Part shown: one piece after another, positions 1,794 through 2,638 of the stretch
Layout: every line of letters begins with the position of its first letter
Position numbering within the stretch: position 1 is the first letter of the stretch
Source: an uncultured Candidatus Saccharibacteria bacterium
GTDB taxonomy: Bacteria; Patescibacteriota; Minisyncoccia; UBA6257; GWB1-50-10
Reading direction: 5' to 3'
Assembly (NCBI GenBank): GCA_964621575.1
Contig: CAZUMB010000002.1
Coordinates: 1 to 24,220, forward strand
DNA length: 24,220 nucleotides
The notes under the pieces: model-generated
Databases searched by the model: none
The model's input: only the letters and a program-made list of their open reading frames with translations
Told to the model about the DNA's origin: nothing
Translations under genes and position numbers: made by a program

Positions 1794-1822
1794 AATCTAT
1801 TGACGTTTGACGTCAATAGATT
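1794..1822. repeat. REP-like palindrome, copy 1 (perfect 13-bp stem, TTG loop)
   Basis: aatctattgacgt-ttg-acgtcaatagatt, ending 13 nt upstream of the transposase ATG. Confidence 0.9.
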
Positions 1823-1827
1823 AAGAT
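1800..1827 (+). promoter_or_regulatory. Putative sigma70 promoter of the RAYT-like gene, -35 inside the palindrome
   Basis: TTGACG (1800-1805), 16 nt, TAAGAT (1822-1827), then 8 nt to ATG 1836. Confidence 0.55.
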
Positions 1828-1835
1828 GAAAATAC

Positions 1836-2555
1836 ATGGCGAGAATAGAAGTTTATCATGTTTTAAACCGGGGAACTGATAAGAGAAAAATTTTTCTCGA
1901 CGACAAAGATCATTTGCGTTTTATTCACAACTTATTTGAATTCAACGACGAAAAACCCGCGTTCAATGTGGGCTATAATTTCAAAAACGAATATATTGAC
2001 GTCAAACGTCAATATATTAGACAGAGAGAGCCAAGGAAACTGTTAGTAGAAATTCTAGCTTTCTGTTTAATGCCAAATCACTACCATCTCCTCTTAAAAC
2101 CGAGGAGAAAAAATGGTTTGTCGGAATTTATAAAAAAGTTAAATGGCGGGTATGCTAAATATTTCAACAATAGATATAAAAGATCAGGAAGATTGTTCGA
2201 GGGAAAATATAAATCTGTATTAATAAAAGACGAAGCCTATTTTATTCATCTCCCTTACTATATTCATCTAAATCCTTTGGATTTAGCTGCACCGGAGTGG
2301 CGAAAAAGAATATTATCGACGTCTAACATCAATAAATCTATAAATTTGCTGGAGAAATATCGATGGAGTAGTTACTTAGACTACATTGGTAAGAAAAATT
2401 TCCCATCGGTAACGCAAAGAAAATTTCTAGAAGAGTTTTTCGATGGACCGGAACAATACAGAAAAGACACAATGAAGTGGTTGAAAAATCTATCGACGTC
2501 AAACGTCAATAGATTAAAGGAAATAAAAACCTTAACTTTAGAAAAGGTAGATTAG
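1836..2555 (+). CDS. HUH Y1 tyrosine transposase, REP-associated (RAYT-like; IS200/IS605 TnpA superfamily)
   Basis: N-terminal YHVLNRG, HUH motif in FCLMPNHYHLL, GRLFEGKYKS, catalytic Tyr in YIHLNP, YRWSSY. About 35% GC in a sampled line. Confidence 0.9.
   Translation: MARIEVYHVLNRGTDKRKIFLDDKDHLRFIHNLFEFNDEKPAFNVGYNFKNEYIDVKRQYIRQREPRKLLVEILAFCLMPNHYHLLLKPRRKNGLSEFIKKLNGGYAKYFNNRYKRSGRLFEGKYKSVLIKDEAYFIHLPYYIHLNPLDLAAPEWRKRILSTSNINKSINLLEKYRWSSYLDYIGKKNFPSVTQRKFLEEFFDGPEQYRKDTMKWLKNLSTSNVNRLKEIKTLTLEKVD
1990..2018. repeat. REP-like palindrome, copy 2 (inside RAYT ORF, perfect stem)
   Basis: aatatattgacgt-caa-acgtcaatatatt; encodes YIDVKRQYI. Confidence 0.9.
2310..2338. repeat. REP-like palindrome, copy 3 (degenerate, inside RAYT ORF)
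   Basis: atattatcgacgt-cta-acatcaataaatc; encodes LSTSNINK. Confidence 0.65.
2487..2515. repeat. REP-like palindrome, copy 4 (inside RAYT ORF, one mismatch)
   Basis: aatctatcgacgt-caa-acgtcaatagatt; encodes NLSTSNVNRL. Confidence 0.9.
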
Positions 2556-2565
2556 TCTTTGTTTG

Positions 2566-2638
2566 TGCTCTCACGGGGAATCGAACCCCGGTTTCTAGGA
2601 TGAGAACCTAGTGTCCTAGGCCACTAGACGATGAGAGC
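2566..2638 (-). tRNA. tRNA-Glu (anticodon CTC), CCA not encoded
   Basis: Reverse complement folds as a cloverleaf: acceptor GCTCTCA/TGAGAGC, anticodon arm CTAGG-TTCTCAT-CCTAG, T-arm CGGGG-TTCGATT-CCCCG. Confidence 0.96.

Follow-up and report, generated by a model that had tools for sequence, protein, structure and literature searches.

Genes for REP-associated tyrosine transposases (RAYTs) are classically flanked by repetitive extragenic palindromic (REP) sequences. REPs that are translated inside host genes are already known (PMC3733652), and in-frame REP insertions have been described inside the tnpA-REP genes of subclass 2.4, between the HUH motif and the tyrosine, while no REP-like sequences were found near the genes of subclass 2.1 (Quentin et al. 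2018, PMC6006769). Here we analyze a 24,220-nt stretch of DNA from an uncultured Candidatus Saccharibacteria bacterium (contig CAZUMB010000002.1, positions 1 to 24,220; hereafter the window), in which the region 1794-2555 holds a single open reading frame (ORF; 1836-2555, plus strand, 239 amino acids) and four copies of a 29-nt palindrome, three of them within the ORF. We assign a probability of roughly 0.65 to the reading that this region is a compact REPtron-like cassette, in which the gene of a RAYT-like Y1/HUH single-stranded DNA (ssDNA) nuclease is combined with its cognate hairpins, and that it represents a subclass 2.1-like clade of Patescibacteria. The cassette is a variant of the known REP/RAYT units and not a new system. 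In the literature we found no description of a clade that combines subclass 2.1-like motifs with hairpins of a non-GTAG type and with an inner hairpin copy, N-terminal of the HUH motif, that is conserved and co-evolves.

The gene product is predicted, from its sequence and its modelled fold, to be a Y1/HUH nuclease of the RAYT kind, in line with the initial annotation of this region. The HUH motif is H82-Y-H84 (codons 2079-2087), the Y-x-x-x-N-P motif, which marks class 2 TnpA-Y1 proteins (RAYT / TnpA-REP in the wide sense; Quentin et al. 2018), is Y142-I-H-L-N146-P147 (Y142 codon at 2259-2261), and the C-terminal tail carries W177-S-S. H82, H84 and Y142 never vary across 93 diverse sequences, and N146 and P147 show conservation of 90% or more. 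The Pfam model Y1_Tnp (PF01797) matches with E 2e-11 (44.5 bits, cutoff 23), while the scores for the NCBIfam RAYT equivalog NF047646 (REP_Tyr_transpos; 44.2 bits, cutoff 80) and the NCBIfam IS200 model NF033573 (18, cutoff 55) lie below their cutoffs. A profile search of the PDB ranked E. coli TnpA-REP (4ER8) first. An AlphaFold2 model built from the 93 sequences reached a mean confidence (pLDDT) of 89.4 and superseded an earlier, poor model from 31 close sequences (pLDDT 60.6); Foldseek placed 4ER8 TnpA-REP best on this model, followed by the TnpA proteins of ISDra2 and IS608, with a probability of 1.00 for the TnpA structures 4ER8, 2XO6 and 2VJV. In the model the HUH residues lie on strand 82-89, and residues 36-70 form a coil with the lowest pLDDT. 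Among distant relatives this 36-70 loop is hypervariable in length and sequence, with persisting hairpin-coded motifs (EVGL, EVQP, IDVxR), and it is wholly missing from classical proteobacterial subclass 2.1 proteins.

All four palindromes that had been reported at 1794, 1990, 2310 and 2487 were recovered, both in the sequence itself and with a repeat finder. Copy 1 (1794-1822; 13-bp stem, loop TTG) lies 10 nt past the stop of a HAD-like gene and 14 nt ahead of the ATG. Copy 2 (1990-2018; loop CAA) encodes YIDVKRQYI (residues 52-60) in the coil that links helix A to the strand preceding the HUH motif; copy 3 (2310-2338; loop CTA), 67% identical to copy 1, encodes LSTSNIN (residues 159-165); and copy 4 (2487-2515; loop CAA, one C/A mismatch) encodes NLSTSNVNRL (residues 218-227). 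Copies 2-4 have their loops in one orientation and copy 1 in the opposite one. The inner copies are read in two frames, as originally described, with copies 3 and 4 (LSTSNIN and LSTSNVNRL) in one and copy 2 (YIDVKRQYI) in the other. Folded as ssDNA, copies 1, 2 and 4 reach -12, -10.8 and -7.4 kcal/mol (z -8.3, -6.9 and -4.9, respectively), energies that no shuffle matches. Copy 3 had been described as a degenerate hairpin; it is present at 2310 as a recognizable sequence, but it no longer folds (0 kcal/mol). The hairpin feet, in the window as in the family consensus, read AAT[AC]T / A[GT]ATT.

The core motif of the palindrome has no further match anywhere in the 563,693-bp genome, in which all four copies lie at the gene; the assembly is in 72 contigs, so that hairpin copy counts are lower bounds. 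The clustering of four copies at one gene is far above chance, yet the palindrome is not a dispersed repeat in this genome; it is the hairpins of the paralogous genes (see below) that are dispersed instead. Canonical REPs occur in many dispersed extragenic copies, and for a hairpin without copies outside its gene the label "REP", used initially, is overstated. The cassette and REPtrons such as that of E. coli YafM (4ER8; PMC3333891, PMC3479197, PMC8266576) share several features: both have the Y1/HUH domain and the Y-x-x-x-N-P motif, no structure matches better than 4ER8, the gene has its own hairpin on both sides, mostly inverted (TTG in copy 1, CAA in copy 4), each paralogue has its own hairpin family, and solo hairpins are dispersed in the genome. 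They differ in that the hairpins of the window lack the GT[AG]G tag, in that copy numbers here are tiny (4 for the window hairpin and 5-18 for the others examined), and in that the protein of 239 residues has a helical tail and two clade-specific inserts, with a hairpin built into its ORF.

In its motifs and length, compared with Table 1 of PMC6006769, the protein resembles subclass 2.1 (Bertels group 1; the TIRYTs of PMC3733652), whose features are a length of ~238 residues, NH[YF]H, FQ, Y[IV]HLNP and a Ser-Ser tail: the window protein has NHYH, LFEG (LFQG in most relatives), YIHLNP and W-S-S in 239 residues. Few, divergent paralogues and low-copy repeats, some of which overlap gene ends, are further points in common. 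In contrast, TIRYTs are associated with terminal inverted repeats carrying GGGG[AT][CG]A[CG] (De Nocera et al. 2013, PMC3733652) and not with 13-bp hairpins, and classical proteobacterial members of subclass 2.1 lack both the 36-70 loop and the segment that holds copy 3 here. The nearest plasmid-borne homologues, on plasmids of Iodobacter and Pseudomonas (L109 and L110), are 27-31% identical and carry NHVH / WE / YIELNP / WSS; they lack both segments that hold hairpins in the clade of the candidate phyla radiation (CPR).

To place the four copies in the context of the family, we searched clustered protein sets: among clusters at 90% identity, a word-indexed search matched 5,641 proteins, and at 50% identity 7,842 clusters matched at E ≤ 1e-10. 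Nearly all members of this very large family come from Patescibacteria. We fetched 80 homologous loci and added the two paralogues of the window genome, and the layout of hairpins was counted over 83 loci. In 52 of the 83, a locus-specific palindrome occurs upstream of the gene, inside the ORF and at its 3' end; most loci have perfect palindromes, and the typical sites are ~20-60 nt ahead of the ATG, ~+150 to +225 of the ORF (about +160) and just past the stop. The inner copy is present in 56 loci, and in 54 of these 56 its centre falls on the first base of a codon (phase 0). Copy 2 alone among the inner copies of the window occupies this family-wide conserved site. The orientation of the loops is biased: upstream and inner copies are inverted in 34 loci and the same in 18, upstream and 3' copies are inverted in 37 and the same in 23, and inner and 3' copies are the same in 32 and inverted in 19. 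With a bias of only ~2 to 1, we rejected orientation as a strict rule.

This layout can be compared directly with that of subclass 2.4 (PMC6006769), in which a cognate hairpin is likewise translated as part of the gene of its nuclease, in a variable region at the periphery and with the frame intact. Here, however, the conserved site is N-terminal of the HUH motif (residues 52-60, before H82), the extra sites are C-terminal of Y142 (residues 159-165 and 218-227), the motifs are NHYH / FE (FQ in relatives) / YIHLNP, and the inner copy occupies one homologous position throughout the clade and co-evolves with the flanking copies. A further hairpin in the window gene (2265-2289; 11 bp, loop TTT) lies over the codons of the catalytic motif IHLNPLDLA. 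A strict scan of the 83 loci found it at the window locus only, with a weaker one over the same motif in locus L102, and we set it aside as a probable accident of codon choice.

Within a locus, the copies agree with one another. The loop-coding DNA, located by protein homology, has a median exact match of 21 nt to the flanks of its own locus, compared with 8 nt to the flanks of other loci; this test selects nothing for palindromy and measures matching rather than pairing. Pairing was evaluated separately: in 193 copies 87.5% of inner stem positions are paired, whereas arms taken from different loci pair at 55.4%, and in the 52 inner copies 86.8% of cells are paired, compared with 65.3% in shuffles. 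The covariation score of these 52 copies is 0.484 against 0.121, none of the 500 shuffles attains 0.484, and 11 of the 13 stem pairs change on both sides, so the covariation across genomes that the initial annotation had anticipated is strong. The G-C pair at stem position 6 is retained in 190 of the 193 copies. Changes between copies within a locus (68 compensated, 81 double but non-pairing and 460 single-sided, mostly at the feet) give no clear signal. The class of the hairpin core changes 36 times among the 61 tips of a protein tree built without the hairpin-coded columns, where the possible minimum is 22 and the shuffled mean 46.9, a pattern that suggests some inheritance together with fast turnover.

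These data bear on whether the inner copies, copy 2 included, are passive passengers that do nothing for the gene, neutral in surface loops and alike to the flanking copies only through short-tract gene conversion or repeated re-insertion. Several observations are in keeping with such neutrality: copy 3 has decayed, copies 3 and 4 lie in gap columns, hairpins of the same kind stand in frame in unrelated host genes, the loop around copy 2 is disordered and hypervariable in length, and among family members the outer pair of copy 2 is often not formed. Neutral passengers would nevertheless leave unexplained the single codon phase at the inner site, and the inner ten pairs, which remain paired and continue to track the flanks among loci with only 55-65% protein identity. 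Moreover, flank copies read in the frame of copy 2 give a stop in 75 of 113 cases, while the free insertions, copies 3 and 4, sit in the sole frame that is open without change; copy 2 is therefore not a fresh paste. Conversion between 29-nt repeats ~200 and 500 nt apart would also be unusual without a dedicated enzyme. On balance, we regard the passenger explanation as rather unlikely, and we conclude that copy 2 is an old site, built into the gene and co-evolving, within a disordered loop that is missing from proteobacterial homologues.

The strength of the selection on copy 2 should not be overestimated at its outermost position. With the codon phase of copy 2, the corresponding arm in copies 1 and 4 would give CAA-TAG; copy 2 has T at 2015 (TAT) and A at 1993, so that the codon and the stem pair are both preserved (C-G to A-T). 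This compensatory, stop-avoiding change had been put forward as a mark of selection on the hairpin, and it is real in the window, but it is not a rule of the family. The stop-avoiding T is general, because Tyr60 is nearly invariant. Its stem partner varies: inner copies at the 1993/2015 position carry C·T in 16 cases, A-T in 11, C-G in 10 and T-A in 8, and 23 of 52 are unpaired there. The C·T mismatch is the commonest state of inner copies and almost never occurs in flank copies, indicating that the coding constraint usually beats pairing at this position. Family-wide selection on the 1993/2015 pair is thus unsupported, and the double change of the window is a weak argument for structural selection.

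All three inner peptides fall in gap columns when aligned against canonical homologues, as had been predicted, but the three inner copies are not equivalent. Structural selection on the inner hairpins, as first proposed, is supported for copy 2, which has a conserved site, and it does not extend to copy 3, which has decayed and is not under such selection here. The suggestion that the inner copies are insertion scars likewise holds in part: copy 3 can be read as a scar, and copy 4 as an in-frame insertion. In the closest relatives the hairpin at the site of copy 3 is still intact, with a perfect 10-bp stem (L103) or 9 of 10 pairs (L101), and it encodes I[SL]TSDVNK there; copy 3 is its decayed orthologue. 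The alignment shows two extra residues in this region in the subclade of the window, and the segment is missing from proteobacterial homologues. Copy 4 is a lineage-specific in-frame insertion of 6 residues, 13 codons ahead of the stop, in gap columns that are otherwise filled only in protein P0019; the locus of P0019, L102, has a window-type hairpin at the same C-terminal site and in the same frame. Copy 4 substitutes for the post-stop copy that relatives carry 10-50 nt past the stop and for which the window has no room, because a tRNA gene starts 10 nt past the stop. At L102, three different hairpin families occur around and inside the gene (L102:1400-2400), and the gene has an in-frame hairpin insert of 8 residues (YGLAKTID) at +529.

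The upstream copy lies in what is probably the promoter. A promoter-like site (TTGACG-16-TAAGAT, 1800-1827, plus strand) overlaps copy 1 and lies 8 nt ahead of the ATG; with 9 of 12 matches it is not above chance alone. A scan of the window for promoters returned no excess of sites over chance, and support comes only from the positions seen family-wide. Across the family, -10-like hexamers are found 5-8 nt ahead of the ATG six-fold more often than expected (35 vs 5.8; 33 of 83 loci), the centre of the upstream hairpin lies mostly 15-31 nt 5' of the hexamer, and the spacer between hairpin and ATG is AT-rich. The window gene has no Shine-Dalgarno sequence, and few family loci have a recognizable one. 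The start of the window gene is probably leaderless, and the family pattern agrees with a leaderless mRNA whose -35/spacer region is covered by the hairpin.

Such placement raises the question of whether the palindromes act as duplex DNA, as symmetric operators for a dimer of the helical C-terminal domain. The upstream copy lies over the promoter region family-wide, complementarity is also expected of symmetric half-sites, and C-terminal domains resembling a helix-turn-helix (HTH) have been described for subclass 2.1 (Quentin et al. 2018, PMC6006769). However, no HTH family was among the profile matches of residues 150-239, copies also lie in the ORF, past the stop and in host genes away from promoters, and a perfect 13-bp stem with a 1-3-nt spacer is typical of the hairpin substrates of Y1 enzymes. 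We consider double-stranded operators very improbable; for the upstream copy they would be compatible with the hairpin reading.

A role at the RNA level, with the upstream copy as insulator or terminator, the post-stop copy as stabilizer and the inner copy as a translational brake, appears extremely unlikely. REPs are known as mRNA stabilizers (PMC3733652), the 3' copy of relatives lies directly past the stop, and a T run follows copy 2 on the minus strand. But the upstream copy precedes the -10 box of a probably leaderless mRNA and would therefore lie outside the transcript of the gene, the coding strand has no T run after the copies, and G·U pairs are rare in inner copies (0-4 per pair column in 52 sequences). 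On the minus strand, the sequence that follows copy 2 is CGTTTTTGAA, and the site scores as terminator-like; it could be a stop for antisense transcription arriving from the side of a tRNA-Glu gene, or it could be due to chance.

We also compared the composition and the neighbours of the cassette with those of its relatives. It lies between the HAD-like hydrolase gene (1128-1784) and tRNA-Glu (CTC; 2565-2638, minus strand), which forms its right-hand boundary. GC content is 26-38% across ~1750-2560 and 45-56% on either side; at 32.9%, compared with a genome value of 50.2 ± 4.2%, the cassette falls in the lowest 0.07% of 720-nt windows and is the most AT-rich such stretch of the genome. By GC content it looks foreign. 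A gene with a higher AT content than its own flanks is seen at 76 of 77 homologous loci, and together these biases point to horizontal movement or to a compositional constraint. The gene occurs in 9 of 31 related genomes, none of which shares the neighbours of the window; at the 11 homologous loci of relatives, neither a tRNA nor any of the genes that adjoin the cassette in the window is present. A search of three other genomes from the same genus gave no close homologue of the HAD-like neighbour; one family member has it, but in a different context. Synteny among the searched relatives yielded no pair of empty and filled sites.

Composition and patchy distribution without shared neighbours would suit an ordinary insertion sequence (IS) of the IS200/IS605 type, in which the upstream and 3' hairpins are the left and right ends and the whole cassette transposes. 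Members of this group (IS608, ISDra2) resemble the cassette in their Y1/HUH fold, in subterminal hairpins recognized as ssDNA and in an end hairpin close to where the transposase gene starts. They are, however, characterized by Y-x-x-x-Q, by identical multi-copy members, by end hairpins in direct orientation (as in IS608) and by the absence of hairpins inside tnpA, whereas here the motif is Y-x-x-x-N-P, the NCBIfam IS200 score is far below its cutoff, identical copies are absent, the orientation of the end hairpins is mostly inverted, and solo hairpins are dispersed without the gene. An insertion sequence of this type is, in our judgment, quite improbable.

The window genome (G000) contains two RAYT-like paralogues, 57% (G000:C45:3763-4511) and 51% (G000:C32:606-1428) identical to the window protein, each of which has its own hairpin upstream (with inverted loop), inside the ORF and past the stop. 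Three pairs of enzyme and hairpin, with a different hairpin in each, thus coexist in one small genome. For the C45 paralogue the hairpin is found at 11 sites, spread over 8 contigs, and for the C32 paralogue at 5 sites. Paralogue hairpins are read in frame in four host genes, as NIRVSQTLI in an M17 aminopeptidase (G000:C9:4365-4407), NFRVSQTLR in a LigT-like phosphoesterase (C10:10051-10093), NIRVCETLK inside the domain of a SpoU methylase (C57:1271-1313) and SLEVKPLK in a cobalamin adenosyltransferase (C4:1085-1127). In this they resemble the Rickettsia palindromic elements and the intragenic GTAG/CGTC REPs (PMC3733652), short palindromes that are translated in loops and linkers of host proteins; the difference is that here the repeats are tied to a neighbouring nuclease gene, which includes one copy as a conserved component. 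Five other genomes contain the core GACGTC-N-GACGTC 2-18 times, with 0-13 copies away from the gene, while a reversed control pattern gave zero matches.

Together, these observations suggest a mechanism in which the palindromes behave as the cognate hairpins of the nuclease, by analogy with TnpA-REP and IS608. The enzyme would bind the hairpins in ssDNA and would cut and rejoin at their feet, and this reaction would occasionally copy a hairpin to a new site. Within genes, only copies that keep the frame would survive, which would account for the frame shared by copies 3 and 4. Copy 2 would derive from an ancient insertion that created the disordered surface loop, and it would have been kept recognizable to the enzyme ever since, as expected of a functional cis-site rather than a scar. 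For copy 2 the most likely role lies in cis, which is also the least certain step of the mechanism: the hairpin may provide feedback on the expression of the gene, or it may act as a third end in a strand exchange through which the copies stay matched. Because copy 1 lies over the -35/spacer region of the putative leaderless promoter, occupancy by the enzyme may feed back on its own transcription. We propose only tentatively, as a possibility that we would not favour at present, that the inner hairpin is an obligatory self-addressed site, such that the nuclease acts on a substrate inside its own coding sequence for feedback at the DNA level or as a hub of strand exchange.

Several points weigh against the interpretation of the region as a nuclease gene with its cognate hairpins. 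Co-evolution and the analogy with TnpA-REP and IS608 are the grounds on which enzyme and hairpin are linked. At their feet the hairpins carry AAT[AC]T instead of the canonical REP tag GT[AG]G; the loop orientation is biased rather than fixed; the window hairpin has no copy outside its gene, and mobilization is unseen for it; and the promoter match of the window itself is no better than chance. The inner copy often gives up its outer pair in favour of the Tyr codon, and pairing there is not strongly selected. Finally, the inner copies used in the shuffle test were chosen by their likeness to a palindromic reference, which favours pairing.

What the window itself adds is a four-copy example, with one decayed and one relocated copy, which is modest when taken alone. 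The wider interest lies in the family. It bears on the cellular role of RAYT-type nucleases and on the way in which they choose their hairpins: an enzyme that is accompanied by a matching, fast-changing hairpin three times at fixed places could reveal which residues read which stem positions. A coding sequence that contains the target of its own enzyme is also a simple system for tests of self-regulation. For the biology of Patescibacteria, the results indicate that REP-like repeats exist in these streamlined genomes, where they settle inside genes because intergenic space is scarce. If the inner hairpin is indeed a self-addressed site, then thousands of CPR genes would each record a pair of hairpin and enzyme, and together they would constitute a data set for the recognition code of Y1 nucleases.

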